From contig JAUXGA010000003.1 of NCBI GenBank assembly GCA_030622545.1, positions 86,748 through 150,747 of the forward strand: a stretch of 64,000 nucleotides of DNA. Reading direction: 5' to 3'. Positions 16,430 to 56,715 of the stretch are shown piece after piece. Positions within the stretch are counted from its first letter, which is position 1; every line of letters begins with the position of its first letter. The position numbers were made by a program, and so were the translations under genes. A model generated the notes under the pieces. The model had not been told where the DNA came from. It was given only the letters and a program-made list of their open reading frames with translations, and searched no databases. This DNA comes from a bacterium (GTDB taxonomy: Bacteria > Electryoneota > RPQS01 > DYHQ01).

Positions 16430-16446
16430 TGAATATTAACAACTTG

Positions 16447-17742: not shown

Positions 17743-17760
17743 GGTTATCCCTCCTAAGAT

Positions 17761-17796
17761 AGAAAAACCCCGAAGTGACTGAATTGTCACCTCGGG
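17761..17796 (-). terminator. Strong rho-independent terminator between the nuclease gene and integrase 1
   Basis: 12-bp stem CCCCGAGGUGAC / GUCACUUCGGGG followed by UUUUU on the minus strand. Confidence 0.7.
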
Positions 17797-30191: not shown

Positions 30192-30252
30192 CAGTCTTTC
30201 CTTGTTTGCGTGGTTTAGAGTGTGACAGAATTTCGTATTGATTGCCCAAATT

Positions 30253-30274
30253 ACAGTACAAAAACAGTACATTT
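30253..30274. promoter_or_regulatory. Paired CAGTACA motifs (acagtacaaaaacagtacattt) between integrase 2 and the tmRNA 3' end; candidate arm-type sites
   Basis: Exact 15-mer match to 8846-8860. Positioned in the putative attL region. Confidence 0.4.
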
Positions 30275-30294
30275 GGATTTGGGTATAATATAAT

Positions 30295-30333
30295 AAAAAG
30301 AAAAACCCCTGTTAAGTAAGCACTTAACAAGGG
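30295..30333 (-). terminator. Rho-independent terminator of tmRNA
   Basis: CCCUUGUUAAGU…ACUUAACAGGGG hairpin followed by UUUUUCUUUUU on the minus strand. Confidence 0.65.
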
Positions 30334-30342
30334 CTAATTTGT

Positions 30343-30695
30343 GGAGACGGCGGGAATCGAACCCGCGTCCGAGAAGCGGACCACAGACGGTACCACAGGC
30401 TTCTTCGCTTGTTTAAAATCTCACTCCCAGGCCGCACAAACGACAAAACTATCAGGAGCCAGCCGCTAAATCTCGCGCGCTACTCGCGACACTGAAGCAC
30501 GCCAGCGGGTCTTAAATGGCGCTCGACTCATCAACCAACCCGCAAATCGGTGAGGAGCGTGCCACCTAATTCTTAGGCAGCAAGAGCATAAGTGCTATTG
30601 GCACTTGTGTTTTTGGGGTGTGATTATGGAGGATGCCCCAGCCTCCGCCTGCACCTTCTGCCACCCATTCATCCCGTCGAAACCAGATCGTCCCC
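30343..30695 (-). ncRNA. ssrA: tmRNA (SsrA)
   Basis: 5' end GGGGACGATCTGGTTTCGACGGGAT… and 3' end …GGACGCGGGTTCGATTCCCGCCGTCTCCA, a tRNA-Ala-like acceptor and T-arm. The internal tag reading frame is GCC AAT AGC ACT TAT GCT CTT GCT GCC TAA, giving (A)ANSTYALAA. Confidence 0.85.
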
Positions 30696-30825
30696 ATGAA
30701 TGCAGATGACGCTATTATAAGATAACACGAAATCAGCCCTGAGTCAAGTGCGCTGAAGCATATCCAATAACTCGCCGTTGTGTGGTCTCCTGACCCGCAA
30801 TGGCGTAACTAAAGAGGGGGTCACA

Positions 30826-32685: not shown

Positions 32686-32888
32686 GGTTTTACCCCTGTA
32701 TAAAAAAGGCTGATATGAACTTCAGGAATCTGTGTAAATAAATATAAATCAACCTGCTCGGAATTGCAAGAGAATATGCGATTTTATTTCATTTTTCCAA
32801 TGCTCTAAATTCTTTGAAGAATAGGATATTACAGATTGCCGGAGGGTTTGTGGTGGGTCAATAGTCGTTGATGCCTCTTTTGTCTCGG

Positions 32889-32923
32889 CATTCCGGGCAG
32901 ATCAGGGGATCTGCCTCGGCGAG
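32889..32923 (+). repeat. 35-bp palindrome-containing intergenic repeat, copy 1
   Basis: CATTCCGGGCAGATCAGGGGATCTGCCTCGGCGAG, with the internal inverted repeat GGCAGATC…GATCTGCC. A degenerate partial copy lies at 32963-32984. Confidence 0.8.
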
Positions 32924-33024
32924 ATGTTGCGTAACCCGGCTCGGCGGGGAGCCGACTTTCAACATTCCGGGCAGTCTGCGCGAGAGGTAAACGGCACCCA
33001 CTCGCGGCGATAAGTTGGATTGAA

Positions 33025-33059
33025 CATTCCGGGCAGATCAGGAGATCTGCCTCGGCGAG
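33025..33059 (+). repeat. 35-bp palindrome-containing intergenic repeat, copy 2
   Basis: CATTCCGGGCAGATCAGGAGATCTGCCTCGGCGAG. Confidence 0.8.
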
Positions 33060-33475
33060 TTTTTATCGAGGGACTCTGCTCGGTGGGATGAATATAATTA
33101 TGCAATTATTGCGCAACCCGTAAAATTCTTGCGCGGGGAATGGTGAGAGTTTGTTCTATGCTGAATTTGAATTCTCTAAGACAAAATGAATCAGAAATAG
33201 TAATCAAGGTCTTAAATATCCTCTCGAAGTTTATTATTATCAGTTAATAAACTCAGAATACTCGAATAGATTGAGCGTTTGAGAGAGTTCTTACAGGCTT
33301 GATTTTTTCATAGGAGTCGCTATCAAATGCGCGTGCTAAGAAGGTTGCTTATTGGCATAAAATTTGGTATCTTGTATTGATATGGAGACTATCCGCCGGC
33401 TTCTTGAAAACCGGCAATCCTCCCTTTTAATAAGCAGCAGCTTTGTAAAGGCGAATTTAGGAGGAGGTAACAGCA

Positions 33476-36400
33476 ATGCGTACGCGATTATGGGTTCTCT
33501 TATTCTTAATCCCAGGGTTTGTACTGGCTCAGACGCCCGCGTCTCAAAACGTGGAAGAAACTCACGAACTTTACCGCCAGTACTTCTCTCAGAAAGAAAA
33601 CTTAGGAAGCGGGACGGGTTTCAAACCCTGGAAGAGAGCCGAGTGGTTCTGGGGACAACGCGCTTTTCCGTCCGGAGTGATTCCGGCTGGTGCACGCTGG
33701 GAAGCTTATCAGCAGATGCTGAAAATGCCGCGCGCTCATGTAGACGACCAGTGGGAAGAACTCGGCCCAGCAAATATCGGCGGTCGCACGCGTGTTATTC
33801 GTTTCCATCCCAACAATCCGGATATCATGTTCGCCGGTTCTGTTTCAGGTGGTTTGTGGAAGAGCACTGACGCGGGTCATGTCTGGTTTCCCATCACGGA
33901 TTACCTGCCGAATATTGCGGTGGGCGCTTTCGAGTTTGATCCACTGCATCCGGACACGATGTATCTTGGCACGGGTGAAGGAACTTACAATATTGACGCC
34001 GTGCTTGGCATAGGTCTGCTTAAGAGTACCGATGGCGGCGTTACTTGGGAGCAGACCGCTCTTTCATGGCCTTATTCATCCGACGGAGCTGTCAATAAAA
34101 TCAGCGTTGATCCGGTCAATCCGGAGAATATCATTGTTGCGACACGCACGGGCTTGCGACGCACGACCGATGGAGGAGTTTCGTTTTCGACTCCTTTCGG
34201 TGGTGTAACCGGTGATTTCAAAGACGTACAGCGTGATCCGCAGAATCCGGACACTCTTCTTGCGTCAGCAGGAAATCCTTGGGGCGCAGCTACGAATGGA
34301 ATCTATAAATCCACGGATGGTGGAGCCACATGGTCTCGGCGAACGAGCGGATTGCCTCCAACCAATTCCATGGGACGGAGTATTCTTGCGTATTACGAAA
34401 GCAATTCTGCGGTTGTTTACTGCGGTATCTCGGAAACGTTCAGTGCTGGAGGGATGACGATTGGAATTTATCGGAGTATCGATGGAGGAGAGATTTGGGC
34501 TGCCATGAATACGACCACTGAGATTTTCTCCGAGCAGGGCTGGTATGATATGATGCTGGCGGTTCACCCCACGAATTCCGCGCTGGTTTTTGCAGCCGGT
34601 CGCTACATGTTCCGTTCCACGAACAGCGGAAGTCACTGGAGTCAGGTCGGACAAACGGTTCACGTGGATTTTCATGAATTCGTATTCCATCCGAATAATT
34701 CCTCTATCGTGTTTGTCGGAACGGATGGCGGCCTCTTCATGTCTTATAACTGCGAAAGTAATGTATGGGAAGAAAGAAACACGGACTACGTCACGCATCA
34801 ATACTATGGTTTCGGGAACGCTACCATCGATACGAATTTAGCCTTCGGTGGCGCGCAGGATAACGGCACGACGCGCTGGCGCGGGGCTCGCGATTGGGAC
34901 TGGGTTTATGGGGGAGACGGTGGTTACTGTGTTGTGGATTGGAGCAACGATAATACTGTTTATGCGGAATGGCAATTCGGTCACCACGTTCGGTCACTCA
35001 ATGGCGGCAACTCGTTTTATCCTATTCAAACCGGAATCGTTGGTAATGGTCCTTGGGTGACGCCCGTGATTCAGGATCCGTTCGAACCGTTCACGCTGTA
35101 CACGACAGCCGGCGCCGGGCAAATCTACATCACGACGAATCGTGGTACCCAATGGGATTCGCTGGGCAGTCCGATTGGTGGAGAGGTACTATCGATTGCG
35201 GCTTCTCCCGTATTGCCGGAGAGACTCTACGCCGCGCGCGGCGGTGGTGTCTATCGGAAAGATCCCGGTTCTACCATCTGGACGTCGGCATCATCGGGCT
35301 TACCGGGTTCTTATGTGACTCGCGTCGTCGCTGCGCTGGGGAATCCGGATGGAGTCTATGCGACGATTTCAGGCTTTGGCGGCAGTCATGTGTTCTGGTC
35401 GAGTGATGCCGGGGCACATTGGGAAAATATTACAGGAGATTTGCCTAATGTTCCCGTGCAGGATATTGCGATTAATTTGAACGACGCGTCCACGCTCTAT
35501 GTCGGCACAGACCTCGGAGTTTATCAGACGACGAATCACGGCCAGAACTGGGAAATTTTTGGTTCAGGTTTTCCGGTGGTGGTCGTCGATGATATGGAGA
35601 TGCAGGCCAGAACAGGGATGCTGCGCGCAGCGACTCACGGACGCGGTTTGTGGCAGATTCCTACGGGCAATCCATCGGTGAGTTTTCTCTATCCGAATGG
35701 GAGTGAATTGTTAGCGGTTGGCACACCGATTGAGATGCGCTGGGCGGGAGAGGATTTCAGCGGCGATGTTTCCATTGAGCTCAATCGCGAATACCCCGGC
35801 GACACATGGGAACCCTTGTATACTTCCACACCGAATGACGGCGCTGCAGACTGGACGGTGACCGAACCTCTTACGAATCATGCGCGTTTCCGAATTACGC
35901 ATCTGACTTTGCCGGATCAAAACGATACAACGAACGCGGATACACGCATCGTCGAACCCGGTTTGCGCTTAAGTTCGCCGAATGGCGGAGAAGCCATCTA
36001 CGTGACAGCGAACACCTATATCACCTTCGAAAGAATCCTTCTGAACGATACTCTGGTCATCGAATTGAATCGTGATTATCCGTCCGGCGAGTGGGAATCC
36101 ATCGATGAAGCCGTGATTGCGGATTTGGAAATACGTTGGCTGGTGCGCGGCGCTTCCAGCGATAATGCCCGCATGCGCATCACTTCGCTGACGAATCCGA
36201 GCATTGGGGATACGTCGGATGCTGATTTCTCACTTGTGACTCCTGAGATGACGTTGTTCTATCCCAATGGCGGTGAGCTGCTGTATGTGGACAGCACCGT
36301 CAGCATCGAATGGAGCGCTCCGGATATCGAAGGCCGCGTACAGATTTCCATTAATCGCGACTATCCCGATGGCGATTGGACGCATGTTTATTCCAACACG

Positions 36401-36820
36401 TCCAACGACGGCCAACAAAACTGGACAGTCAGCGAACCTATTTCAGAGAATTGCCGGATGCGAGTGAGAGCGATTATGGCGACGGAAGTCGAAGTCATCA
36501 GTGGAGATGATTTTGAAATTCAATCACTGTCAACACCGTCACTTGCGACAATCCCGACGGCTTTCCGCGTTTTGCCGCCGGCGCCGAATCCCTTCAATCC
36601 TGAGACAGTTATTACTTTCGAGTTGCCATCACTGCGGCAAGTAAAAATCGAAGTTTTTAACCGATTGGGCAGGCGCGTCAGCGTCTTGAAGGAAGAAACC
36701 ATGCCTGCCGGTGTGCATCGGGTGACATTCAATGGCGCGAGTTTGAGTTCGGGAATATACTTTATCCGCGTGCAAGCAGGCTCCGAATTCGATATTGCAA
36801 AAGTGGCTTTGGTTCGTTAA
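33476..36820 (+). CDS. Large secreted BNR/Asp-box (Sortilin/Ycf48-like) beta-propeller protein with four C-terminal ~95-aa repeats and a T9SS sorting domain
   Basis: Signal peptide. At least 8 S/T-x-D-G-G-x-T/S-W motifs. Repeated module …LYPNG(S/G)E.L…I.EL NR(E/D)YP.G.WE…. The tail is PNPFNPETVITFELP…GIYFIRV…VALVR. Confidence 0.8.
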   Translation: MRTRLWVLLFLIPGFVLAQTPASQNVEETHELYRQYFSQKENLGSGTGFKPWKRAEWFWGQRAFPSGVIPAGARWEAYQQMLKMPRAHVDDQWEELGPANIGGRTRVIRFHPNNPDIMFAGSVSGGLWKSTDAGHVWFPITDYLPNIAVGAFEFDPLHPDTMYLGTGEGTYNIDAVLGIGLLKSTDGGVTWEQTALSWPYSSDGAVNKISVDPVNPENIIVATRTGLRRTTDGGVSFSTPFGGVTGDFKDVQRDPQNPDTLLASAGNPWGAATNGIYKSTDGGATWSRRTSGLPPTNSMGRSILAYYESNSAVVYCGISETFSAGGMTIGIYRSIDGGEIWAAMNTTTEIFSEQGWYDMMLAVHPTNSALVFAAGRYMFRSTNSGSHWSQVGQTVHVDFHEFVFHPNNSSIVFVGTDGGLFMSYNCESNVWEERNTDYVTHQYYGFGNATIDTNLAFGGAQDNGTTRWRGARDWDWVYGGDGGYCVVDWSNDNTVYAEWQFGHHVRSLNGGNSFYPIQTGIVGNGPWVTPVIQDPFEPFTLYTTAGAGQIYITTNRGTQWDSLGSPIGGEVLSIAASPVLPERLYAARGGGVYRKDPGSTIWTSASSGLPGSYVTRVVAALGNPDGVYATISGFGGSHVFWSSDAGAHWENITGDLPNVPVQDIAINLNDASTLYVGTDLGVYQTTNHGQNWEIFGSGFPVVVVDDMEMQARTGMLRAATHGRGLWQIPTGNPSVSFLYPNGSELLAVGTPIEMRWAGEDFSGDVSIELNREYPGDTWEPLYTSTPNDGAADWTVTEPLTNHARFRITHLTLPDQNDTTNADTRIVEPGLRLSSPNGGEAIYVTANTYITFERILLNDTLVIELNRDYPSGEWESIDEAVIADLEIRWLVRGASSDNARMRITSLTNPSIGDTSDADFSLVTPEMTLFYPNGGELLYVDSTVSIEWSAPDIEGRVQISINRDYPDGDWTHVYSNTSNDGQQNWTVSEPISENCRMRVRAIMATEVEVISGDDFEIQSLSTPSLATIPTAFRVLPPAPNPFNPETVITFELPSLRQVKIEVFNRLGRRVSVLKEETMPAGVHRVTFNGASLSSGIYFIRVQAGSEFDIAKVALVR

Positions 36821-36843
36821 AATATTTTTCTAAAGCAGACGCC

Positions 36844-36880
36844 GGGGAGTTCTTTGTGCTCCCCGATCTGTCTCTTTTAT
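36844..36880 (+). terminator. Rho-independent terminator after the BNR gene
   Basis: GGGGAGTTCTTTGTGCTCCCC hairpin followed by a T-rich run. Confidence 0.55.
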
Positions 36881-36912
36881 TTAGATTATCACCTTTCCCC
36901 ACCTGATTTCCC

Positions 36913-37764
36913 ATGGAACTTTTCCGAATCGGATTTATTCCCGTTACCCTGATTGATGTTCTGGATGTTCTGGTCGTCACGTTTATCTTCTGGAAACTCT
37001 ATCAGATTATGCGAGGGACGCGAGCGTCTCAGATGTTCGCGGGGCTTCTCGTTCTCTTTGTCTTTGCCATCCTCTCTCGAGTGTTGAACATGAGCGGCAC
37101 AAGCTGGCTCGTACAGAGTGTCGTTACAGTCTGGGTGGTCGCGTTCGTGATTCTTTTTCAGCCGGAACTGCGGCGATTTCTGATGCAGCTTGGGCAGAAC
37201 CGGCTGGTGCGAGTGCTTTTCAAAACGGAAGGCGCGCGTACTCTCGATGCGGTGGCTCGCGCCGCCGCGCAGCTCTCGAATCGTCGTATAGGCGGCCTGA
37301 TCGTTATTCAGCGCGATTCCAACATTCATTCCATCGCGGAAAGCGGCGTGCGCATTCAAGGCGAAGTTACAGCGGAACTCCTGCTTTCCATTTTTCATCA
37401 GCGAACGCCGCTGCATGATGGAGCAGTCATTATTACCGGAACAACCTTAGAAGCCGCCCGTTGTTTGCTGCCCTTAAGTGAGAATCCCGATTTGGATTCG
37501 GAACTCGGAACACGTCATCGCGCCGCTCTGGGAGTCACGGAAGAATATGACTGCGTCACGGTGGTTGTTTCGGAAGAGACCGGAACGATTTCACTGGCGC
37601 ACGATGGGAAATTCGCCGCACGGAACCTCGGCGAACCGGAACTGCGCGACGCCCTAAATCATCTTTGCGAACGAGGAAAGATTGGCCGCAAGAAAAAAGA
37701 AAAAAAGAGAGACGCAAAAGGACAAGACGACGCGAGCGCAGAAGATATGGCAGCGTCTGGTTGA
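36913..37764 (+). CDS. cdaA: Diadenylate cyclase (c-di-AMP synthase) CdaA
   Basis: Three N-terminal TM helices. DAC-domain motifs DGAVIITG, GTRHRAALG and VSEETG. Confidence 0.8.
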   Translation: MELFRIGFIPVTLIDVLDVLVVTFIFWKLYQIMRGTRASQMFAGLLVLFVFAILSRVLNMSGTSWLVQSVVTVWVVAFVILFQPELRRFLMQLGQNRLVRVLFKTEGARTLDAVARAAAQLSNRRIGGLIVIQRDSNIHSIAESGVRIQGEVTAELLLSIFHQRTPLHDGAVIITGTTLEAARCLLPLSENPDLDSELGTRHRAALGVTEEYDCVTVVVSEETGTISLAHDGKFAARNLGEPELRDALNHLCERGKIGRKKKEKKRDAKGQDDASAEDMAASG

Positions 37765-38359
37765 ACTCTATCCGCATTCGACAGCGCTGAATCATCGCAC
37801 TCCGCTTCAGCTTTTAATCGCGGCGATTCTTTCGGCGCAGTGTACCGATGTACGCGTGAACGAGGTCACGAAATCTCTCTTCAAGAAATATCGCAAACCC
37901 GAAGATTATTTAGCGGTGCCTGCGGAAGAATTGGAAGAGGATATCCGTTCGACCGGTTTCTTTCGCGCCAAAACCAAATCCATTCGCGGGATTTGTGAAG
38001 CACTTTCTCGGGATTACAGTGGAAGAATTCCCGAAACTATGGAAGAGATGCTCAAACTTCCGGGTGTGGGGCGAAAGACGGCGAATGTTGTTTTAGGCAC
38101 AGCGTTTGGTTTGGTTACCGGCGTGGTTGTCGATACGCATGTGAAGCGTCTGGCGTTTCGCATGGGACTTACTAAAGAGACTGACCCGGAAAAAGTCGAA
38201 CGCGCTCTAATGGAGCTGTTGCCTCAAGACATCTGGATCGATTACAGCCACGTGATTATCTGGCACGGTCGCCGCATTTGCAACGCCCGCAAGCCGAAAT
38301 GCTTGGAGTGTCCAGTCGAAGATATTTGTCCACGTGAAGGAGTAACGACAAGCGCTTAA
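37682..38359 (+). CDS. nth: Endonuclease III (Nth), HhH-GPD with a 4Fe-4S cluster
   Basis: LLIAAILSAQCTD, LPGVGRKTANVVL and the C-terminal C-x6-C-x2-C-x5-C cluster (CNARKPKCLECPVEDIC). The start is uncertain because it overlaps the cdaA 3' end in another frame. Confidence 0.8.
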   Translation: MAARKKKKRETQKDKTTRAQKIWQRLVELYPHSTALNHRTPLQLLIAAILSAQCTDVRVNEVTKSLFKKYRKPEDYLAVPAEELEEDIRSTGFFRAKTKSIRGICEALSRDYSGRIPETMEEMLKLPGVGRKTANVVLGTAFGLVTGVVVDTHVKRLAFRMGLTKETDPEKVERALMELLPQDIWIDYSHVIIWHGRRICNARKPKCLECPVEDICPREGVTTSA

Positions 38360-38383
38360 TACTTTCTGACAAAAAAAGAAAAA

Positions 38384-38412
38384 GGCCGAGCTGACATGCC
38401 CGGCCTTTTTTA
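38384..38412. terminator. Bidirectional hairpin terminator between nth and the convergent YHS gene
   Basis: GGCCG…CGGCC stem flanked by an A-run and a T-run. Confidence 0.55.
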
Positions 38413-38433
38413 TTTTCGTTGAACGCTGAAGCA

Positions 38434-38928
38434 CTACTTGCAGATTTTTCTGCAGGATGGGGAGCAGGTTTTCGCACAGGATTTTGCAGAGGAGCTGGAT
38501 GTCTTGCAGAATTTCTTCATACTCCTCTTCGACGCGAAGTAATAGCGCTTGCCGTCTTGGTCGTGATAATTGGTTTTAGCGGTGACAACCCTTTTCTTGC
38601 CGCTGACAGGATCCGAAAAATGCTTCCCGGATTCATCCACACTTAGAATGTTTGCAGGTACAGCGAAATTTGCAAGCCATTTAGATGGATTCGCTTGAAA
38701 CTTGGTTTCGCAGCCCGCGCAGCAGTGATAGTAGCGAACGCCATTAATATCAGAATAAGAAGGCGCAGTACTGACGAGGCCTTCACCGCCCATGACAGGG
38801 CAGGTATAATGCTTCTGTCCATTCGCGGTTGTCCATACATTTCCTTCGGTCATGCTGACTTCAGCATACGAAACTTGCAGCGTGATTGCCATCAAGCAAA
38901 CTGCAAATATTACAGACATTTTTCTCAT
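38434..38928 (-). CDS. Secreted YHS/TRASH-type metal-binding domain protein with a Cys/Lys/Ser-rich tail
   Basis: Signal peptide. HYTCPVMG…YYHCCAGCETKF and DPVSG…RYYFASKRSMKKFC resemble two YHS-like modules. The tail is KTSSSSAKSCAKTCSPSCRKICK. Confidence 0.5.
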   Translation of the reverse strand: MRKMSVIFAVCLMAITLQVSYAEVSMTEGNVWTTANGQKHYTCPVMGGEGLVSTAPSYSDINGVRYYHCCAGCETKFQANPSKWLANFAVPANILSVDESGKHFSDPVSGKKRVVTAKTNYHDQDGKRYYFASKRSMKKFCKTSSSSAKSCAKTCSPSCRKICK

Positions 38929-39164
38929 CGTTTTTCTCCTTTTACAGACGATTGAATGAATAGGTTATACCCAAATGAAAAATTCTTCCAAGATGGCGTC
39001 CATTTCCGTCGTGGTTTCAAGGGAATCCAGAGGCTAACTACATGTAAATTAAATTTTACGACTATACGAATCTTTTAACTCCGAAAAGCAATTCTAAGTT
39101 CCAAAAAAAACGCGGGCAGGAAAAATCCATGCCCGCGCTTTGACATTAAGTGTCGAGTTGTTTC

Positions 39165-41045
39165 CTATTCCATCGCACTTAGAAGTTCCATCGATTTCTT
39201 GGGATTCATCAGCCGGATTTCCCGGTCACCTGCGGAAGTGACATCAGAGCCGCGGATGATTAAATCGCGAATTTGCGCCGGAGTTAAATCGGGCTTCACC
39301 GCGAACAGTTTACCGGCGAGGTTTGTGGTATTTGGGGAGGACATCGAGGTGCCGGACAGTTTCATTTCATCGCCGCCGGGAACATAGCTGAGCACTTCAA
39401 AGCCGTTTGAATACACATCCACTTTACCGAAGCTCGTAAAGTTAGTCTCGTCACCGGCCTGATCCACCGCTCCGACAGACATGATGTTCGGCAAATCGTA
39501 GGCACTGGGATAAAACTCCTCAAAGACCACATCATTGTTCGCGTTACCTGCCGATGTGATAAAGAGAATGTCCGGCGCGTTTTTGATCGCCGCATAGAGA
39601 GCCTTATTGACGATTTCAAAAATCTGACGCGCCAGAACCTTGCGTTCTTCCGGAGTACCACCGGCGTTGTTGGCTTCCAGAGCCGACTCCACGTCAGCGA
39701 GAGAACCGCCCCAGCTCATATTTACAGCGCGGACTCCCTGTGTTTTGAAATACTCGATGGCTTCTTCAATGGCTTTCGCATCTTTTTTGGCTTGCGCAAT
39801 CGTTGGTTCCTCAGGAATCAGGTGATGATCGTACGTGAGGCGAGCTGCTAAAATCCGCGCAAACGGATTTCCTTTCGTGGTAATACCGGCGACGTGAGTG
39901 CCGTGGCAATAGTTGCCGTATTTCGAGATGCCTTCAATAAACGGTTTCACCGAATCCTGCGCCAGAGTGCTGAGGAGCTTTTTCAAGTCTTGTGCTTCCG
40001 GGCTGTCGATGCCGGATGTGATGTCCGTCAGCCCTTTCATCTGCTTTTGCAAACGCGGGCGTTCTTTGGCAACATCTCCGATAGGATAAAGCAAATCGGG
40101 TGTTTTATCCGCATGCAAGGTGTACGCGATACCGAATACATCATCGACGTAGCCGTTATTATCATCGTCTTTTTTATTGTTCGGTATTTCCTTAGTATTG
40201 AGCCACATTTGATTTGTGAAAATATCTGTATCCACACCCGAATCCCAGACAGCCAAAACAACGGGGGCTTTACCGTCTTTTGGTGTCAAAGCGATGTCGC
40301 GCTCCGCCCAGATGTCTGGTTTTTCGACTTTGTGCGCGTCGATGGTTTCTGCATATATGGCTGCCATTTCATCTTTAAGCGGCAGGTAAGTGCGAACCAT
40401 AAAGGCGTTGTTTAAAAGACCGGTCGCGATATCCTTACTCATCTCGCCGCCGCTTTGGTCCAGCATCGGCTGGATTCTGGATTCAATCAATCCCGCGATA
40501 AGATTCCGGGAGAGGATTTCTGAGCTGCCTTTCCTCTGCTTGATGTCGGCTTCGCAATCTGCATAGGGTAGCGCATCGACCATTTTTTTCATTTCCGCGC
40601 GGAAATTCGCTGTGAAATCGCCGCTGCCTGAACGCTTGGCTTTGATAAAGGCTTGTGTGAACAGTCCGGTCATGAGCCGTGTGGCCAGCTTATCTTCAAG
40701 CTTTTTCCGCTTCTCAAGAAGTTCGAGGTACGTGTCGTAATCGCCTTCCAGCATAGCGATGATGCCGAGGTCGCCATAGTATCCCTGCAGCGTGGTTCTA
40801 TCGTCGATCTCATACGTGTCCAGATCTTTTTCCAGATCCTTTCTAATTTCGGCGGCGAGTTTCATCACCGCGGCGTCATCGTCGAGCCAATCAACAGCGT
40901 TTCCGTCAATCTTGTACGTGTACCGGGGTAAATCGTCCAGCTTCTCGATTTTGATTTTTTCCGCAGAAAGGGACGTCAGGCTTGTCCCGAAAAGCAGAGC
41001 AAAACAGCCAAACCAGATTGCCGCTGTGCGTGCTGCGCGTTTCAT
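39165..41045 (-). CDS. S8 family subtilisin-like serine peptidase (complete) with a long N-terminal domain
   Basis: Signal peptide starts at MKRAARTAAIW. Catalytic triad regions VLAVWDSGVD, HGTHVAGI and GTSMSSP. The ORF track extends to 41093. Confidence 0.85.
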   Translation of the reverse strand: MKRAARTAAIWFGCFALLFGTSLTSLSAEKIKIEKLDDLPRYTYKIDGNAVDWLDDDAAVMKLAAEIRKDLEKDLDTYEIDDRTTLQGYYGDLGIIAMLEGDYDTYLELLEKRKKLEDKLATRLMTGLFTQAFIKAKRSGSGDFTANFRAEMKKMVDALPYADCEADIKQRKGSSEILSRNLIAGLIESRIQPMLDQSGGEMSKDIATGLLNNAFMVRTYLPLKDEMAAIYAETIDAHKVEKPDIWAERDIALTPKDGKAPVVLAVWDSGVDTDIFTNQMWLNTKEIPNNKKDDDNNGYVDDVFGIAYTLHADKTPDLLYPIGDVAKERPRLQKQMKGLTDITSGIDSPEAQDLKKLLSTLAQDSVKPFIEGISKYGNYCHGTHVAGITTKGNPFARILAARLTYDHHLIPEEPTIAQAKKDAKAIEEAIEYFKTQGVRAVNMSWGGSLADVESALEANNAGGTPEERKVLARQIFEIVNKALYAAIKNAPDILFITSAGNANNDVVFEEFYPSAYDLPNIMSVGAVDQAGDETNFTSFGKVDVYSNGFEVLSYVPGGDEMKLSGTSMSSPNTTNLAGKLFAVKPDLTPAQIRDLIIRGSDVTSAGDREIRLMNPKKSMELLSAME

Positions 41046-41593
41046 AGCATTCTCCATAGAAAAATTATGAGTCTTAAAGAATTTACCATACACTCTATAA
41101 GATACGCAAAATCGTGAAAAGTTTCAAGGTTCCGAATGGGTGTCGCATTTACCACGGCGTAAATTCCCCCTATCGGCGGGCTCCCGCCCGTCGCTGCAAT
41201 GGACAGGCAGGAGCCTGCCCGTAATGAGATGTTTTTACGGAACAGAAAACAAGGCGCGGAGCAGACCTAATTCACTCCGCGCCAAAAACGAAACCATGTG
41301 CGGCTCAAGACCTAAACAACGCCTTGATCCATCATGGCATCGGCAACTTTGATGAATCCGGCGATGTTGGAGCCGTTGGCAGCTTTGCCGGTTGCCACAA
41401 GATAAGAGGATGAGGCAATAAGTGAAAAAGTACATTTGATTGAATCTTAAAGGGTTACAGAAAGGCGTTATCTGGAGAGAGGTGATGACACGTCGCAGAA
41501 ATGCCCAAATTTTAAATATGCAAAATTTGAGCTAACTTGTCAAGAGAAAAATTCCGCTCAGTTGCCTGTGGTGTTAGTTGCTGGCGGTTGATC

Positions 41594-41674
41594 TAAGCGC
41601 ACGCCGTGCGGCACTACCAGACTATGTTGGCCGCGGCGAGCTAATACCCCACCGAGGCAGGTTGCCTGACCTGC
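41594..41674 (+). repeat. Second intergenic repeat family (TAAGCGCAC-GCCGTGCGGCACTACC-GA-TATGT… / …CCGAGGCAG…CTGACC), copy 1
   Basis: It shares a roughly 40-nt core with 43949-43988 and the CCGAGGCAG sub-motif with the 35-bp palindromic repeat family. Confidence 0.6.
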
Positions 41675-41678
41675 TTGG

Positions 41679-41717
41679 AAAATAAAAAGCCCTTGTCATC
41701 AAATTTCGACAAGGGCT
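41679..41717 (-). terminator. Rho-independent terminator of the EamA gene
   Basis: AAGCCCUUGUC…GACAAGGGCUU hairpin followed by UUUUUAUUUU on the minus strand. Confidence 0.6.
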
Positions 41718-41743
41718 TTCGTGTTAGAGTTATGACCGAATGT

Positions 41744-42640
41744 TCACCCCACCGTTACTAAAATCGCTCCGGCGACGCCGACCAGAATCGCTATTGTCCG
41801 TTGCAGGTTGATGGGTTCTTTCAAGAAAAAAGCGGCAAAGACAAAGATAAAGATATTGCTCATTTGATTGAGTGCCGCAGCGATGGAAGCTTGAGCGTAT
41901 TTCATCCCGCCCAGCCAGATAATCATCGAAAGGTAAGCCCCCATAAAGGAACCCGAAAGCGTATATCCCCAGCCGCGCGACGATAACGCCGAAGCCATGA
42001 TGGCGCGCCGCGCAGGATGCAGCAACAGAATCAGCACCATCACCACGACAGATGCTAAAAGCCGAACCTCGGACACCCACAACAGCGGGGAGCGTTCGAG
42101 CAGCGGCTTAATCATGACGATTCCCACCGCCATACCTGCCAAGCCTAAAACACCGAAGGTAATTCCCAAAATCAAATCACGGCGCGAAAGACCGGCTTGT
42201 GGTTTCTCCCGCGTGGCAACAAAAACGGCTGAGATAATCAGAAGCGTGCCGACAATCTGCAGCGGCGTCATCCGTTCCCCCAGCCAGAGAACCGAAAGCG
42301 ATATAATCGATGGGCTGTAAAGGCATTCCACGATAGCGGTCAGTCCTGCACCTAAGCGGTTCAGGCACATGAAAAAGAGCGTATCCGCGATGCCGATGCC
42401 GAGTGCGCCGCTGGCCATGAGCAATAGATATTCGCTGGCGGGAACATCACGAAACAACGTTCCGCCGAATAGCCAGATGGTCGGCAGCAGCAGCACAGAC
42501 GCCAACGTATTTTTATACAGATTCAGCCCAATCGGATGAACCGTTTCTCCGCTTTTCTTGAAAAGGATAACCGCAATCGCCCATGCAATTGCCGCTCCCA
42601 AAGCCAGCGTATGTCCGATATGAGATTGGATAAAATCCAA
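41744..42640 (-). CDS. DMT-superfamily transporter (EamA family)
   Basis: 10 predicted TM helices with two EamA-like halves. Confidence 0.7.
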   Translation of the reverse strand: MDFIQSHIGHTLALGAAIAWAIAVILFKKSGETVHPIGLNLYKNTLASVLLLPTIWLFGGTLFRDVPASEYLLLMASGALGIGIADTLFFMCLNRLGAGLTAIVECLYSPSIISLSVLWLGERMTPLQIVGTLLIISAVFVATREKPQAGLSRRDLILGITFGVLGLAGMAVGIVMIKPLLERSPLLWVSEVRLLASVVVMVLILLLHPARRAIMASALSSRGWGYTLSGSFMGAYLSMIIWLGGMKYAQASIAAALNQMSNIFIFVFAAFFLKEPINLQRTIAILVGVAGAILVTVG

Positions 42641-42785
42641 GAATCGCCTTTCGATTGAACTTCTCAGGTGGCCTACAATAAAGACAAATTACATCTGATT
42701 TGCAAGTCGCATAGGCACTTGCTCAAAACGCGCGGATTTTGTATATTTTTATAGACACAAACAATTTTTAGGCAGCTCTATTACC

Positions 42786-43874
42786 ATGACTCCAAAACAA
42801 ACAGCACTGACACCGATTCATCAAAGGCTCGGGGCGAAGATGGTGGACTTCGGCGGTTTCCTGATGCCCATCCAGTACACATCGATACGAGCCGAACATC
42901 GCCGCGTTCGGACAACCGTGGGCGTGTTCGATGTTTCGCACATGGGAGAATTTGTCGTTCGCGGGCCGGATGCGGAAGCGTTTTTGAATAGAACGACTGT
43001 GAACAATGTCCGAAAATTGCAGGTTCATCAGGTTCAGTACACTTGCGCTTGTTATCCTGACGGCGGCATTGTCGATGATTTGCTCGTGTACCGTTTGCTG
43101 GATCATTATATGGTCGTGGTGAACGCGGCGAACCTCGACAAGGACTGGGCGTGGCTGATGGAGAACAAGCGCGGCGACTGCGAACTGGAAAACATTTCCG
43201 ACGCTTATTCTCTCTTAGCGGTTCAGGGACGTGATGCCGAAGCGGTCATACGGAAACTAACCACAGAGGATTTGGCCGCGATTCAATTCTACTGGTGCGT
43301 TGATAATGAAGTCGCCGGTTTACGCACGTTGATTTCCCGCACGGGCTACACGGGGGAAGCAGGATTCGAGCTGATGGTCAAGAACGACGACGCACCCGCG
43401 CTTTGGGATGCGCTCTTCGATGCGGGCAAAGAATTCGATATCGAACCCATCGGTCTGGGCGCGCGCGACAGCCTGCGGTTGGAAATGAAATATTGTCTCT
43501 ACGGAAACGACATCGATAAAACAACAAATCCTCTTGAAGCCGGATTGGGCTGGATTACGAAACTCAAGAAAGGCGATTTTATCGGTCGTGACGCGCTGCT
43601 TCGAGCAAAAGAAGATGGCATCAAACGCAAGCTCATCGGTTTCGAAATCGAAGGCGCTGGTTTCCCGCGGCCGCACTATCCGATTCTTTCGGACGGCAAA
43701 CAAGTCGGTCAGGTAACCTCAGGAACCGTTTCGCCGATGCTAAATAAAGGCATCGGTTTAGGCTACGTTCCGATTGAACTCAGCGACATCGGCACCTCCC
43801 TCGAAATCGACGCCCGCGGTCGAACCCTCCCCGCCAAGATTGTCAAAACCCCCTTCTACAACCGCCCGTATTAA
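42786..43874 (+). CDS. gcvT: Glycine cleavage system T protein (aminomethyltransferase)
   Basis: The N-terminus LTPIHQRLGAKMVDFGGFLMPIQYTSIRAEHRRVRTTVGVFDVSHMGEF is highly characteristic of GcvT. 362 aa. Confidence 0.9.
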   Translation: MTPKQTALTPIHQRLGAKMVDFGGFLMPIQYTSIRAEHRRVRTTVGVFDVSHMGEFVVRGPDAEAFLNRTTVNNVRKLQVHQVQYTCACYPDGGIVDDLLVYRLLDHYMVVVNAANLDKDWAWLMENKRGDCELENISDAYSLLAVQGRDAEAVIRKLTTEDLAAIQFYWCVDNEVAGLRTLISRTGYTGEAGFELMVKNDDAPALWDALFDAGKEFDIEPIGLGARDSLRLEMKYCLYGNDIDKTTNPLEAGLGWITKLKKGDFIGRDALLRAKEDGIKRKLIGFEIEGAGFPRPHYPILSDGKQVGQVTSGTVSPMLNKGIGLGYVPIELSDIGTSLEIDARGRTLPAKIVKTPFYNRPY

Positions 43875-43948
43875 AGAGACTTCCCCCCGCCTGCTCACGT
43901 CATCCTACGGGCTGGCTCTGCCTGTCCGTAAATACATGATGTTCGGAT

Positions 43949-44022
43949 GTAAGCGCACTGCCGTGCGGCACTACCGGATATGTCCGCCCGTTGCTTTTCC
44001 TCGCCGAGCCCGGTTACGCAAC
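43949..44022 (+). repeat. Second intergenic repeat family, copy 2, plus a GCGTAACCCGGCTCGGCG-type unit
   Basis: GTAAGCGCACTGCCGTGCGGCACTACCGGATATGTCCGCC aligns to 41594-41627. CGCCGAGCCCGGTTACGCAAC is the reverse complement of 32924-32945. Confidence 0.6.
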
Positions 44023-44054
44023 GTTTCGCCGAGGCAGATACCCTGACCCCAAAT

Positions 44055-44089
44055 CTCGCCGAGGCAGATCCCCTGATCTGCCCGGAATG
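44055..44089 (-). repeat. 35-bp palindrome-containing intergenic repeat, copy 3 (reverse orientation), with a related partial unit at 44027-44048
   Basis: CTCGCCGAGGCAGATCCCCTGATCTGCCCGGAATG is the reverse complement of the 32889 copy. Confidence 0.8.
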
Positions 44090-44289
44090 CCTAAACAACA
44101 GAGGCATAAACGACTATTGACCCACACCAAACCCTCCGGCAATCTATAAGACCATATTCTTCAAAGAATTCACAACCTTAGAAAGATGAAATAAATCACC
44201 TATTCTCTTGCAATTCCGAGCAGGTTGATTTATATTTATCTACACAGATTCATCAAATCCATACCAGCTTTTTAATAAGAGGATGAACC

Positions 44290-46332
44290 ATGCGCAGTGC
44301 TTCGATTGTTTTATTCATTCTAATCCTGCCGGTTTTAGTATTCGCTCAAGCCCCGGACAGCTTGTGGAGTCGCAACTTCGGAGGAACTTTTACGGACGAG
44401 TGCAATTCAATCCAGCAAACATCAGATGGGGGGTATATCTTGGCAGGTTACACCTATTCTTTCGGACAAGGAGGACGTGATTTCTGGTGGGTGAAAACGG
44501 ATACTGATGGATTAGCACAGTCGACTCACACCTTTGGAGGAGACCATGATGACGAATGTCGCTGCATTGAACAAACCTCCGACGGCGGCTTCATCTTAAC
44601 AGGATACACATATCCTCGCGTACCCGGGTATAATGATTTGTGCGTCATAAAGACGGATACAAGTGGTTCGCTCATCTGGAGCCGAATACTTGGTGGCAAT
44701 TCTTATGATGAGGGCCAGTCTATTCAGCAAACCTTGGATGGTGGCTATATCGTAGCGGGGCAAACGGCCTCATTCGGTGCGGGTGATTGGGATTTCTGGC
44801 TAGTAAGAATGGACTCGAATGGTGATAGTGTTTGGAGCCACACCTTTGGGGGCGCCTATCCAGATATATGCTATTCCGTTCAGCAGACAACAGACAGCGG
44901 TTACATTCTCGCGGGGTACACTCAGTCGCACACAGGAGGTCAGGATTTTTACATGGTGAAAACAGACAGTCTTGGTGATACACAATGGGCGCGAACCTAT
45001 GGAGGGGCCGACTGGGATCGAGCGACCTCTGTTCAACAGACTAGCGATGGGGGCTACGTGTTAGGAGGATGGACCGATTCGTTCGGAGCTGGAAATAAGG
45101 ATTTCTGGCTTGTGAAGACTGACTCTGTTGGCGACACTCTCTGGACTCGAACTCTGGGAGGTAATAGCGATGATGTATGCTATTCCGTTCGACAAAGTAC
45201 AGACGGAGGTTATATCTTGGCAGGATATACTTTTTCTTTCGGTGTAGGAATATCTGACGCTTGGTTAGTCAAGGTTGATGCCAGCGGGGACAGTATATGG
45301 AGCCGTACCTTCGGAGGAAGTCATAGTGATATGTGCAATTCGGTTCGACAAACCTCGGATGAGGGTTATATACTGGGAGGTCTCACCAATTCTTATGGCA
45401 CAGCGAGCTCTGGCGATTTCTGGATGGTGAAGACGGGGCCGGAATATCCGAATGTTGGGTATGTGACTTTGATTCAGCCGGGGCCGCCGGATTGGGGCTA
45501 TCAGTTGAATTGGGTCAGCGGTTCCCTGTCGCGTTTTACATTCACAAATTTCTGCGATGGAACAGTGGGCTCTGTGGGAGGAGCCGCTACTGCCGCAGGG
45601 TGGATAGCAACAAACTACGCGGACTCGATTGTGTTCATGTCTTCAACACCACTCACCTCCGGCACGATTGACACATTTTGGCTTTCGCATCCATGGTGCA
45701 GCGATGTTGTTGACTGGACGGTTGGTGACAGTTCGGGAAGTGTGGATGGGCCGTTGCCTGTGGAAATGACAACGTTCCAAGCTATCGCAGGCGATGGGCA
45801 GGTGACTCTGCAATGGCGGACGGAAAGTGAACTCGACAACGATCATTTTATCTTATACAAACGCAAAGCCGGAGAAGAAGATTTTCATGCGTTTACCGAA
45901 ATTCCCGGTCATGGAACAACTTCCGAACCGCACGACTATCAATTTGTAGATTCGTGGGTGCAGAATGGTATAGCCTACGACTATCAAATTTCTGATGTAG
46001 ATATCGCCGGACGCGAAACATTCTATGAGCAAATCGTTTCCGCCACACCCGGCAGTGACATTGTACCCACTGAGTTCTCTCTTCATCAGAACTACCCGAA
46101 TCCGTTCAATCCGGTGACAACGATTCGTTATGATGTGAAGGAAGTCGGACTTGTTTCGCTAAAAGTTTTCGATTTATTAGGTCGTGAGGTGACGACACTT
46201 ACCCATGAAGAACATTCCGCCGGTTCTTATTCGGTTACATGGAATGCTGCCGGTATGCCATCCGGGATTTATCTTTGCCGGATGGAAACGGAAGGATTTG
46301 CGCAGGTGAGGAAGTTGTTGTTGGTTAAATAA
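44290..46332 (+). CDS. Secreted beta-propeller-repeat (SBBP-like) protein with Fn3-like domain and T9SS C-terminal sorting domain (cassette paralog B)
   Basis: Signal peptide. Seven repeats of about 50 aa, (F/W)GG…D.C.S(V/I)QQT.DGGYILAGYT.SFG.G..DFWLVKTDS.GD..WS.T. The C-terminal 190 aa are about 90% identical to gene 30826-32685. Confidence 0.8.
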   Translation: MRSASIVLFILILPVLVFAQAPDSLWSRNFGGTFTDECNSIQQTSDGGYILAGYTYSFGQGGRDFWWVKTDTDGLAQSTHTFGGDHDDECRCIEQTSDGGFILTGYTYPRVPGYNDLCVIKTDTSGSLIWSRILGGNSYDEGQSIQQTLDGGYIVAGQTASFGAGDWDFWLVRMDSNGDSVWSHTFGGAYPDICYSVQQTTDSGYILAGYTQSHTGGQDFYMVKTDSLGDTQWARTYGGADWDRATSVQQTSDGGYVLGGWTDSFGAGNKDFWLVKTDSVGDTLWTRTLGGNSDDVCYSVRQSTDGGYILAGYTFSFGVGISDAWLVKVDASGDSIWSRTFGGSHSDMCNSVRQTSDEGYILGGLTNSYGTASSGDFWMVKTGPEYPNVGYVTLIQPGPPDWGYQLNWVSGSLSRFTFTNFCDGTVGSVGGAATAAGWIATNYADSIVFMSSTPLTSGTIDTFWLSHPWCSDVVDWTVGDSSGSVDGPLPVEMTTFQAIAGDGQVTLQWRTESELDNDHFILYKRKAGEEDFHAFTEIPGHGTTSEPHDYQFVDSWVQNGIAYDYQISDVDIAGRETFYEQIVSATPGSDIVPTEFSLHQNYPNPFNPVTTIRYDVKEVGLVSLKVFDLLGREVTTLTHEEHSAGSYSVTWNAAGMPSGIYLCRMETEGFAQVRKLLLVK

Positions 46333-46333
46333 G

Positions 46334-46368
46334 CATTCCGGGCAGATCGGGGGATCTGCCTCGGCGAG
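46334..46368 (+). repeat. 35-bp palindrome-containing intergenic repeat, copy 4, immediately after the paralog B stop
   Basis: CATTCCGGGCAGATCGGGGGATCTGCCTCGGCGAG. It forms an inverted pair with 44055-44089 around a 2.3-kb segment. Confidence 0.8.
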
Positions 46369-56570: not shown

Positions 56571-56715
56571 CAAACAAAGCGTTGTAACAAAGAACTAATA
56601 CACTATACAAAAATATTCGGAAGATGTCAAGGAGAAAAAAATTCTTCGCTGAGAGAACAAGCCCCCGACCTGAATTCAGATCGGGGGCTAGGGTTAGATT
56701 ATCGAGAAGAACAAA

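Follow-up and report, generated by a model that had tools for sequence, protein, structure and literature searches.

Two paralogous T9SS cargo genes and the repeats around them

The 64-kb stretch of DNA analysed here (the window) carries two paralogous genes for T9SS cargo proteins, called gene A and gene B. The last 582 nt at the 3′ end of gene A are 86% identical to gene B, and the module upstream of gene B (44090-44273) is paralogous to 32704-32888. Around both genes lie short palindromic repeats of several types; the window copies were scored with a covariance model (CM), and REP types 1 to 4 were compared by blastn-short, as follows.

5371-5384, + strand: type-4 remnant (blastn-short) in a second REP cluster, distant from genes A and B
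5421-5451, + strand: type-2 REP with a compensated stem, in the same second cluster (93.5%, E 1.6e-7)
30772-30803, - strand: type-2 REP (CCATTGCGGGTCAGGAGACCACACAACGGCGA; 94%, E 4e-7), between the gene A stop codon and the tmRNA gene
30826-32685, - strand: gene A, T9SS cargo protein of 619 aa with a Por_Secre_tail domain, paralogue of gene B
32889-32923, + strand: full type-1 REP (CM 59 bits, E 1e-11), at the distal end of the gene A upstream module
32926-32946, + strand: type-4 remnant, 3′ part (...TTAACCCGGCTCGGCG; 15/15 match to the type-4 3′ end, E 0.04)
32963-32974, + strand: type-1 head of 12 nt, CATTCCGGGCAG, with the hairpin deleted (CM 13.7 bits)
32977-33010, + strand: type-3 REP (TGCGCGAG..CTCGCGGCGA) fused to the type-1 head (85% over 34 nt, E 2.7e-5)
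33025-33059, + strand: full type-1 REP (CM 60.9 bits), a direct copy 136 nt from 32889
41646-41684, - strand: diverged type-1-like unit (TTCCAAGCAGGT-CAGGCA-ACCTGCCTCGGTG; 16 bits, E 0.07; 79%, E 0.003)
44002-44022, - strand: type-4 remnant (blastn-short)
44027-44046, - strand: half type-1 unit, its 3′ 20 nt (blastn-short)
44055-44089, - strand: full type-1 REP between gcvT and the promoter-like site of gene B, invariant in three aligned upstream regions
44290-46332, + strand: gene B, T9SS cargo protein of 680 aa, paralogue of gene A
46334-46368, + strand: full type-1 REP, starting 1 nt past the gene B TAA (46330-46332)

The units at 41646, 30772 and 5421 and the remnants at 32926, 44002 and 5371 were absent from an earlier note on this DNA. 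The 41646-41684 unit is weak; it is intergenic, lies downstream of an EamA gene and has no significant fold (z -1.2). At gathering thresholds, Rfam recognised only the tmRNA, a tRNA and a cobalamin riboswitch in the window, and nothing at the repeats.

The full unit, CATTCCGGGCAGATC(R)GG(R)GATCTGCCTCGGCGAG, spans 35 nt and was recovered by pattern search with 0 mismatches at 32889-32923, 33025-33059 and 46334-46368 on the forward strand and at 44055-44089 on the reverse strand, exactly where the earlier note had placed it; none of 100 dinucleotide shuffles produced a chance match. Its palindromic core, GGCAGATC-N4-GATCTGCC, occurs in the window only at these four sites, and the perfect 8-bp inverted repeat ascribed to it is present in every full copy and folds as a hairpin. 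The two partial units reported earlier are likewise real, but their description had to be revised, as the one at 32963 is a 12-nt head fused to another REP type and the one at 44027 consists of the 3′ 20 nt of the unit.

The segment 32889-33059 can be described from its sequence as a direct array in which several REP types are mixed, BIME-like only as a mosaic. The type-4 remnant within it (32926-32946) is also kept upstream of gene B and in the upstream region of L034, the locus of the closest relative. Upstream of gene B, a promoter-like TTGCAA-17-TATATT (44208-44236) lies downstream of the 44055 copy, and the half unit at 44027-44046 is an extra insertion of about 30 nt that gene A and L034 lack; the same composite of a full REP and a GGGGTCAGGGGATCTGCCTCGGCG half unit was also found in L023 and L048 among the matches listed. 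At the other end of gene B, the TTCCGG head of the 46334 copy begins 3 nt after the TAA, and the copy occupies most of the 54-nt gap between gene B and a methyltransferase gene (46387).

A conserved hairpin-forming unit of about 37 nt

The type-1 unit comprises about 37 nt, with a head (A)(C/G)ATTCCGG, a G+C-rich hairpin and a tail CTCGGCG(R), of which 31 nt form the core. As single-stranded DNA the core folds into a stem of 8 bp, or of 11 bp if one bulged T is allowed, with a folding energy of about -11.4 kcal/mol (z -3.4 to -5.6). In the three stem pairs that the pattern used to search other genomes left unconstrained, 97.9% of the cells were paired among the matches listed, with 16 double changes; none of 500 shuffles reached as high a pairing, and slid controls were paired at 28-50%. 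The unit is hence a short imperfect palindrome in the 20-40 nt range of REPs, with a stem-loop whose pairing has been kept through compensatory changes.

The earlier comparison with MITEs fared less well. Among the matches listed, similarity between copies stops about 3 nt beyond the 31-nt core and composition is random past positions -4/+2, so that there is no longer body; neither a 50-500-bp body with TIRs nor target-site duplications were found. Other candidates were rejected as well: a CRISPR, because there are no spacers and the copies are dispersed; a DGR target hairpin, because the copies are too many; and a Dam/GATC-related site, because relatives have GGTC/GACC or GGTG/CACC where the stem here has GATC. 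An integron attC was set aside, since the unit appears to lack the R/L box structure of such sites.

Dispersal in related genomes and position relative to genes

A search of species-representative genomes with the pattern TTCCGGGCAG-N10-14-CTGCCTCGGCG, for which we estimate a chance expectation of about 1, yielded at least 103 matching stretches from at least 13 related MAGs. Among the matches listed, these MAGs are labelled KSB1, Calditrichaeota or, doubtfully, "Alphaproteobacteria", and the palindrome is missing in only about five matches, which look like chance hits. At least 27 blocks of 8 kb carry the unit in CBDVDL01, the closest relative among the matches listed, with further counts of at least 17 in RPQS01 and at least 16 in CAVTJX01. 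The earlier note had proposed a genome-wide count and had conceded that random dispersal at high copy number would mark a generic REP; high-copy dispersal of this kind is what the related MAGs display among the matches listed. A metagenome scan with the 32-nt invariant stretch of the upstream module gave no match, nor did a scan of viral contigs for the REP.

With regard to genes, 38 of the 111 copies among the matches listed lie at most 60 nt past the end of a reading frame of 150 codons or more, many of them only 2-8 nt from the stop, and the copies near stop codons have the same orientation as the gene in 18 cases and the opposite one in 22. Stop-codon distance was used in place of crude longest-ORF calls, which over-call: the 38 copies that such calls placed inside ORFs fall mostly in short or 5′-overextended ones. 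The same crude caller assigned 34 of the listed copies to tandem, 18 to convergent and 4 to divergent gene neighbours. By these calls the copies are extragenic and mainly downstream of ORFs, as REPs are. Most of the listed copies are singlets or members of direct arrays, and of 34 neighbour pairs at most 300 nt apart, 30 are direct and 4 inverted. Inverted doublets with a short spacer, the hallmark of REPINs, number zero in the window, and the arrays at 32889-33059, L047 and L084 are direct with mixed types rather than alternating in orientation as in BIMEs.

The proximity to stop codons invites the reading that the units serve the host mainly at the RNA level, as bidirectional terminators or 3′ stabilisers retained where genes end, and resemble each other through selection and not transposition. 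A stable hairpin, the filling of an intercistronic gap by the 46334 copy and the third of listed copies that closely follow a stop codon all agree with it, as does the known role of E. coli REPs as 3′ UTR elements (PMC3733652; bioRxiv 10.64898/2026.03.23.713779). The terminator variant, which the earlier note had also offered, could not be upheld in its canonical intrinsic form: no T-tract follows the stem, a terminator scan called no copy, and the sole T-run (33060) begins 8 nt after the stem, unlike in a Rho-independent terminator. Moreover, the listed copies can point either way with respect to the gene before them, and they occur in direct arrays and even upstream of promoters (44055). That dozens of unrelated sites carry identical stretches of 31 nt, together with the link to RAYT genes described below, requires copying rather than convergence. 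We therefore regard a primary RNA function as distinctly unlikely, although an RNA role could coexist with the REP/RAYT explanation as an exaptation.

A second functional reading takes the palindrome for the operator of a regulator of T9SS cargo genes. All four full copies in the window adjoin the T9SS cargo genes A and B or a BNR gene, and the association with such genes suggested earlier does recur across loci, but weakly: among the matches listed, 14.7% of REP-adjacent genes encode a T9SS tail compared with 7.7% of genes (OR 2.05, p=0.028). On the other hand, 122 of the 143 listed REP-adjacent genes are without such a tail, type-1 copies are missing from the vicinity of four of the window's seven CTD genes and most of the listed copies lie at 3′ ends. 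Compensated variation of the stem suits a hairpin better than a fixed operator, and duplicated paralogues that carried a REP along can explain the enrichment, so that an operator appears extremely improbable.

Association with RAYT transposase genes

Two inverted copies of the repeat enclose a RAYT gene in five of six loci from genomes and in most of about 40 loci from metagenomes. The left copy is on the reverse and the right copy on the forward strand in L032, L077, L080, L082 and L024, irrespective of the strand of the RAYT gene, and the RAYT genes of L080 and L114 are flanked by the exact unit of the window. The motif itself was present in 17 of 40 metagenomic RAYT loci, on both sides in 10; at most of the others (about 15 of them two-sided), an unbiased search returned inverted hairpin repeats of 18-40 nt ending in CGGCG. 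The sister types follow the same rule, as type-2 REPs flank RAYT genes in L128-L130, type-3 REPs in L120 and L127 and type-4 REPs in L024 and L134. The hairpin variant is specific to each RAYT variant: CAVTJX01 has two RAYT loci, one of them frameshifted, and the hairpin variant on either side of each is also present at other places in the same MAG.

The transposases belong to the RAYT family rather than to ordinary IS200 elements. The ORF of L032 scored 107.8 bits against the NCBIfam model NF047646, 'REP-associated tyrosine transposase' (cut-off 80), matched Pfam Y1_Tnp and reached only 20.9 bits against the NCBIfam IS200 model, under the cut-off of 55. The best and only PDB match of the RAYT was 4ER8 (TnpA-REP), and five homologues share an HUH motif (MPDHxHAL) and Y-x-H-x-N-P without variation. 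A transposase gene flanked by inverted REPs, the arrangement of a REPtron, is accordingly found in the relatives. No RAYT gene was found within the 64-kb window, and we infer from the relatives that the genome from which it derives has a cognate one.

The inverted pair around gene B

As the earlier note had observed, the 44055 (-) and 46334 (+) copies bracket the upstream module and gene B, enclosing both in a 39-nt inverted pair of 95% identity. Its further suggestion of a mobilisable or invertible cassette (44055-46368) was not supported by comparison of the two paralogues; a RAYT might carry such a cassette, given that RAYT genes are flanked in this way, or a recombinase might invert it. 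The inverted homology between 32704-32950 and 43998-44273 includes the 32889 copy, and homology between A and B extends some 60 nt further out than the upstream REP, whereas at the other end of the genes it goes no further than the stop codon, ahead of the downstream REP. Hence the REPs are not the ends of the duplicated unit, and the 32889 and 44055 copies represent one duplicated insertion.

Several observations nevertheless speak for such a cassette. The geometry, reverse on the left and forward on the right, matches that around RAYT genes, gene X in L034 is bracketed likewise, a rearrangement breakpoint near the REP and module separates the window from L034, and the window carries genes for tyrosine recombinases (29067-30272 and 16597-17790). 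These integrases, however, adjoin tmRNA and tRNA-Gly genes, like those of islands; the geometry has a chance probability of 1/4; the REP downstream of gene A is of a different type; and among the matches listed the only non-RAYT genes so bracketed are those of this orthologue group. The order of REP, module, gene and REP after gcvT is the same in the window and in L034, which also has the 44055 copy and, at the position equivalent to 46334, a REP with the same loop variant; L036, the locus of a more distant relative, has a downstream REP with a GGTC/GACC stem variant and no upstream REP. The segment 44055-46368 is seen in a single orientation in both the window and L034. We judge a cassette delimited by these copies to be very improbable.

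A larger segment of about 11 kb that separates the A and B modules (32.9-44.1 kb) is, by contrast, oriented differently in L034, which would fit a one-off homologous recombination between the inverted paralogues. Since one breakpoint of this inversion lies next to a REP, REP clusters might be thought of as recombination hot spots that invert or reshuffle the neighbourhood of cargo genes, and since the REP-module-gene-REP geometry is that found around RAYT genes, the arrangement might be taken for a RAYT-mobilisable vehicle for T9SS cargo genes; we give little credence to this pair of ideas. Individual REPs do turn over, as one intergenic spot after gene A is occupied by a type-1 REP in L034 and by a type-2 REP (30772) in the window.

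Discussion

The repeat is very probably the REP of a REP/RAYT system in an uncultured FCB-type lineage; that two of its copies bracket gene B in inverted orientation is incidental. The REP-like character that had been read from the window is borne out, as the hairpin is extragenic, dispersed and present in many copies and a cognate RAYT gene lies between inverted copies in related genomes. A REP/RAYT identity is already a known kind, and there is no support for a cassette.

By analogy with E. coli TnpA-REP and IS200/IS605, the RAYT would bind the hairpin on single-stranded DNA and would cleave and rejoin at the conserved unpaired head or tail, giving rise to new copies that may later decay or duplicate locally into direct arrays. 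On this reading the four full copies of the window go back to insertions at three sites. The copies at 32889 and 44055 are one old insertion that was copied with the promoter module of the paralogues A and B; 33025 is a second full copy, in direct orientation within the same mixed array as 32889; and 46334 is a separate insertion past the gene B stop codon. Because the bracketing copies derive from duplication plus a separate insertion, the inverted pair is a by-product and not a functional unit. Copies just past stop codons, such as that at 46334, probably also act as 3′ hairpins in the RNA that shield the upstream message, as judged from analogous REPs.

For the window, this reading mostly removes a false lead, as the palindromes would be generic genome repeats and not a signal of gene B or of T9SS cargo. 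It also documents REP/RAYT outside the well-studied Proteobacteria, in uncultured KSB1/Calditrichota-like bacteria, with a non-GTAG frame, at least 12 hairpin types each with its own RAYT and direct arrays rather than REPIN doublets, and it provides comparative material for the recognition and copying of REPs by RAYTs. A repeat family of this kind could confuse the assembly, binning and annotation of these MAGs.

The closest parallels are the REPtrons of Gammaproteobacteria, such as the REP/BIME of E. coli with TnpA-REP (YafM) and the REPs of Stenotrophomonas and Pseudomonas (Nunvar 2010, PMC2817692; Messing 2012, PMC3479197). Shared with them are imperfect palindromes of 20-40 nt with an unpaired conserved end, a high copy number, an extragenic position mostly after genes, compensated stems and a transposase gene between two inverted REPs that is recognised by the NCBIfam RAYT equivalog and by 4ER8 and has the HUH and Tyr motifs. 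The differences concern the head, GT(A/G)G in the classical gammaproteobacterial REPs (PMC2817692) and missing here, where the unit begins with ATTCCGG and ends with CTCGGCG; the host, an uncultured FCB-type lineage; and the clusters, which are direct mixed-type arrays and not the alternating ones of model BIMEs. REPINs of Pseudomonas, for which copying by a RAYT that is single-copy and vertically inherited has been proposed (Bertels & Rainey 2011, PMC3116915; PMC3337134), are likewise non-autonomous short repeats with several RAYT/repeat pairs possible per genome, but they are inverted doublets forming a long hairpin, whereas only 4 of 34 close pairs were inverted among the matches listed here.

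Both strands of the unit are free of GTAG and CGTC tags, its ends being (A)(C/G)ATTCCGG and CTCGGCG(R), and because neither tag is present at the ends it falls outside the two super-families so tagged (Di Nocera 2013, PMC3733652). The same paper also describes TIRtrons with TIRYTs, RAYT-like genes of non-proteobacterial phyla with inverted flanking repeats devoid of GTAG, some of these repeats being self-complementary and moderately abundant, and it places REPs mainly downstream of ORFs. Our unit resembles the TIRtrons so described in its non-proteobacterial host and GTAG-less inverted repeats, a likeness that concerns the features of the repeats. With IS200/IS605 it shares a Y1 HUH transposase, which here too would act on single-stranded DNA hairpins, but there the end hairpins lie on the same strand and the whole IS moves in several copies, whereas here the flanks are inverted and the high copy number belongs to the 37-nt unit. 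From its sequence, the unit can be placed in a superfamily of at least 12 hairpin types with the common frame ATT[C/G]CGG ... CGGCG.

The repeat unit and its fold

The 35-nt repeat (type 1) is an ordinary repetitive extragenic palindrome (REP) of a REP/RAYT system (RAYT, REP-associated tyrosine transposase) in an uncultured FCB-type lineage. All four full copies and both partial units claimed by the earlier note were confirmed; the full copies fit the 35-nt pattern without mismatch (0 matches in 100 shuffles), and the palindromic core has no further occurrence in the window. Sister hairpin types, each flanking RAYT genes elsewhere, are also present.

REPs and T9SS cargo genes A and B in the window
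5371-5384, type 4 remnant
5421-5451, plus strand, type 2 REP (CCATTGCGGGTCTGGAGACCCACAACGGCGA)
30772-30803, minus strand, type 2 REP (CCATTGCGGGTCTGGAGACCCACAACGGCGA), between gene A and the tmRNA gene
30826-32685, minus strand, gene A, T9SS cargo gene with Por_Secre_tail
32889-32923, plus strand, type 1 REP
32926-32946, type 4 remnant
32963-32974, partial type 1 unit, 12-nt head
32977-33010, plus strand, type 3 REP
33025-33059, plus strand, type 1 REP
44002-44022, type 4 remnant
44027-44046, minus strand, partial type 1 unit, 3' 20 nt
44055-44089, minus strand, type 1 REP
44290-46332, plus strand, gene B, T9SS cargo gene with Por_Secre_tail
46334-46368, plus strand, type 1 REP

In single-stranded form, each type 1 unit makes a hairpin (about -11.4 kcal/mol, z -3.4 to -5.6) whose 4-nt loop caps an 8-bp stem; a bulged T separates this stem from a further CCG/CGG pairing. 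A canonical intrinsic terminator, one of the readings initially offered, is disfavoured, as no T-run follows any of the four copies and a terminator scan called none of them. A full REP followed by a half unit, (T)TTGGGGTCAGGG(G/T)ATCTGCCTCGGCG, turns up again at sites with no relation to each other (window 44027-44050; L023 and L048 from related MAGs), which suggests a stereotyped partial duplication beginning in the hairpin loop.

Dispersal across related genomes

Scanning one genome per species with the pattern TTCCGGGCAG-N10-14-CTGCCTCGGCG, which leaves inner stem and loop unconstrained, we matched at least 103 stretches, with about one expected by chance on our own estimate. About five of the listed matches lack the palindrome (Stellaceae, Chloroflexia, Chthoniobacterales, Streptomyces, Rhodobium) and look like chance hits; the others fall in at least 13 or so MAGs, with at least 27 REP-bearing blocks in CBDVDL01, 17 in RPQS01 'KSB1', 16 in CAVTJX01 and 10 in CAYUIF01, and smaller numbers among the matches listed in DYHQ01, CAZADO01, CAZVXJ01, CAZJAD01, JAZDIW01, JAPKYT01, JAGVEU01 ('Calditrichaeota') and others. 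At the three stem pairs left free by the scan, 97.9% of cells are paired and there are 16 compensatory double changes; none of 500 shuffles scored as high, and slid controls were 28-50% paired. The flanks of the copies are unrelated and their base composition is random past -4 and +2, which makes the repeat about 37 nt long and not a more extended MITE, contrary to a MITE-like reading.

CBDVDL01 is the closest relative among the matches listed, sharing ~90% nucleotide identity across the EamA-gcvT region. Its assignment to 'uncultured Alphaproteobacteria' is doubtful, because its locus holds a one-piece tmRNA and T9SS cargo genes, whereas Alphaproteobacteria have a two-piece tmRNA and are not known to have a T9SS. 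REP-bearing MAGs labelled 'uncultured Alphaproteobacteria' or 'Ca. Puniceispirillum' hold a one-piece tmRNA with the tag ANSTYALAA (L034, the locus of the closest relative, 6212-6566; window 30341-30695) as well as T9SS cargo genes; those labels are probably wrong, and a KSB1/Calditrichota-like affiliation seems more likely.

A RAYT gene between inverted copies

In two loci of CAVTJX01, inverted copies are separated by ~550 nt. The ORF that they enclose in one of these, L032, matches the NCBIfam model 'REP-associated tyrosine transposase' (107.8 bits, cut-off 80) and Pfam Y1_Tnp, and reaches 20.9 bits against the IS200 model, under its cut-off of 55; the sole PDB match of the RAYT is 4ER8, E. 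coli TnpA-REP. By tblastn, homologues adjoin REP copies in L077 (frameshifted), L007, L080, L082 and L024, and the HUH and Y-x-H-x-N-P tyrosine motifs are invariant in five homologues. In five of six loci the RAYT gene is bracketed by a left copy (-) and a right copy (+), regardless of gene strand, and the copies flanking L080 are identical in sequence to those of the window. Searching metagenomes with the aligned RAYTs added 43 loci; the motif is present in 17 of 40 examined, on both sides in 10 with always identical geometry, and at one RAYT (L114) the flanking unit again matches that of the window exactly. When inverted repeats were sought without bias, most remaining loci proved to be bracketed by 18-40-nt inverted hairpin repeats ending CGGCG; the sole exceptions among the 40 are four homologues at 29-32% identity, the most distant of the set. 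The 64-kb window holds no RAYT homologue by tblastn or by profile search (best E 1.3).

REP/RAYT systems are diagnosed by a RAYT gene that has an inverted REP on each side (Nunvar 2010, PMC2817692), and the REP-like half of the original proposal stands: the ~37-nt hairpin is dispersed, with a RAYT between inverted copies in related genomes. The unit lies outside the GTAG and CGTC super-families and is not organised into REPINs, but shows the remaining testable REP/RAYT features. By analogy with the E. coli system (PMC3479197), the RAYT would cleave and join the single-stranded hairpin; a secondary role as an RNA 3' hairpin is possible.

The RAYT-flanking repeats comprise at least 12 hairpin types sharing the frame ATT(C/G)CGG ... 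CGGCG. L032 and L077, one intact and one frameshifted, are flanked by different variants (GTCCACGGAC and GGCGAAGACGAC), each also dispersed elsewhere in CAVTJX01, an example of coexisting RAYT/REP pairs within one genome. With several types side by side, 32889-33059 is a direct, BIME-like mosaic, and REPs also occur far from genes A and B. Close neighbours across all loci are mostly direct (30 pairs versus 4 inverted), unlike inverted REPIN doublets and alternating BIMEs. A REP-head-like CATTCCGGGCAA lies at 6866-6877 (-), just upstream of a T9SS-tailed ORF (5718-6827, -) that contains three tandem 207-nt repeats, 64-80% identical (6068-6688).

Independent insertions around gene B

Gene B sits in the same -/+ geometry as RAYT genes, and 44055-46368 had been suggested as a possible mobilisable or invertible cassette. 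Several observations oppose this: A/B homology runs ~60 nt past the outer edge of the upstream REP and halts at the stop codon at the 3' end; gene A is followed by a type 2 rather than a type 1 REP; the REP-module-gene-REP unit follows gcvT in L034 too; and in the more distant L036, the gene after gcvT has a downstream REP (GGTC/GACC stem) without upstream REP or module. The two gene B REPs therefore inserted separately, at different times.

The paralogues A and B share their final 582 nt (86% identity) and ~250 nt upstream (32704-32950 versus 43998-44273, 87-90%). The copies at 32889 and 44055 both lie inside this upstream segment and so represent a single ancestral insertion copied in the gene duplication. 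In both genes a promoter-like TTGCAA-17-TATATT stands between REP and start codon, so the likely promoter is downstream of the REP. The 46334 copy begins 1 nt past the gene B TAA (its conserved TTCCGG head 3 nt past) and occupies most of the 54-nt gap to a methyltransferase gene.

The ~185-nt module between REP and start codon (32704-32888, 44090-44273; L034 4044-4246), which holds the promoter-like site, is 87-90% identical among A, B and the L034 gene, versus only ~65-75% in the coding bodies; this may reflect a conserved leader or promoter, or gene conversion. A 32-nt invariant stretch of it had no metagenome matches.

L034 reads EamA(-), gcvT(+), REP, module, gene X (the counterpart of A and B), REP, tmRNA(+); in the window, gene B is what follows gcvT-module, and gene A-tmRNA lies ~9 kb off on the other strand (window 30338-32948 and 41748-44294 compared with L034 1618-6569). 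The simplest account is inversion of the ~11-kb segment between the inverted A/B modules by homologous recombination between them. To the left of the REP L034 resembles B, whereas to the right it is slightly closer to A, so the crossover would lie near the REP; the breakpoint maps next to the REP and type 4 remnant. The difference may reflect such recombination between the inverted paralogues, or one contig may be mis-assembled.

Position relative to genes and T9SS cargo

Counting ORFs of at least 150 codons, 38 of 111 copies follow a stop codon by 60 nt or less, often by 2-8 nt; their orientation agrees with that of the gene in 18 adjacencies and is opposite in 22 (two copies counted on both sides). 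By a crude gene caller, copies sit mainly between tandem or convergent genes and rarely between divergent ones, the pattern reported for REPs (PMC3733652). A strand-specific RNA motif was also considered; position and orientation argue against it.

With a CTD profile built iteratively from three tails in the window, a T9SS tail was found in 21 of 143 REP-adjacent versus 26 of 336 non-adjacent genes (OR 2.05, p=0.028); the enrichment is weak and comes partly from A/B paralogues with a REP after the stop codon (L034, L036, L046, L083). The window has seven CTD genes, and four of them lack a type 1 copy nearby.

Islands and other features

A tyrosine integrase gene (29067-30272, -) directly adjoins the tmRNA gene (30339-30695, -) at its 3' end, exactly where synteny with L034 ends, suggesting a genomic island integrated at ssrA (29067-30695). 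A perfect repeat of the 3'-terminal 26 nt of tRNA-Gly(CCC) occurs 7.7 kb away (8707-8732 and 16444-16469). The two copies enclose two Ser/Thr kinase-TPR genes and one FHA-GAF-SpoIIE phosphatase gene, and across the tRNA from these is an integrase gene (16597-17790); the region may be an att-flanked island. A cobalamin riboswitch (56388-56582, -; 95 bits) has a T9SS-tailed ORF (56716-59142, -) upstream of it.
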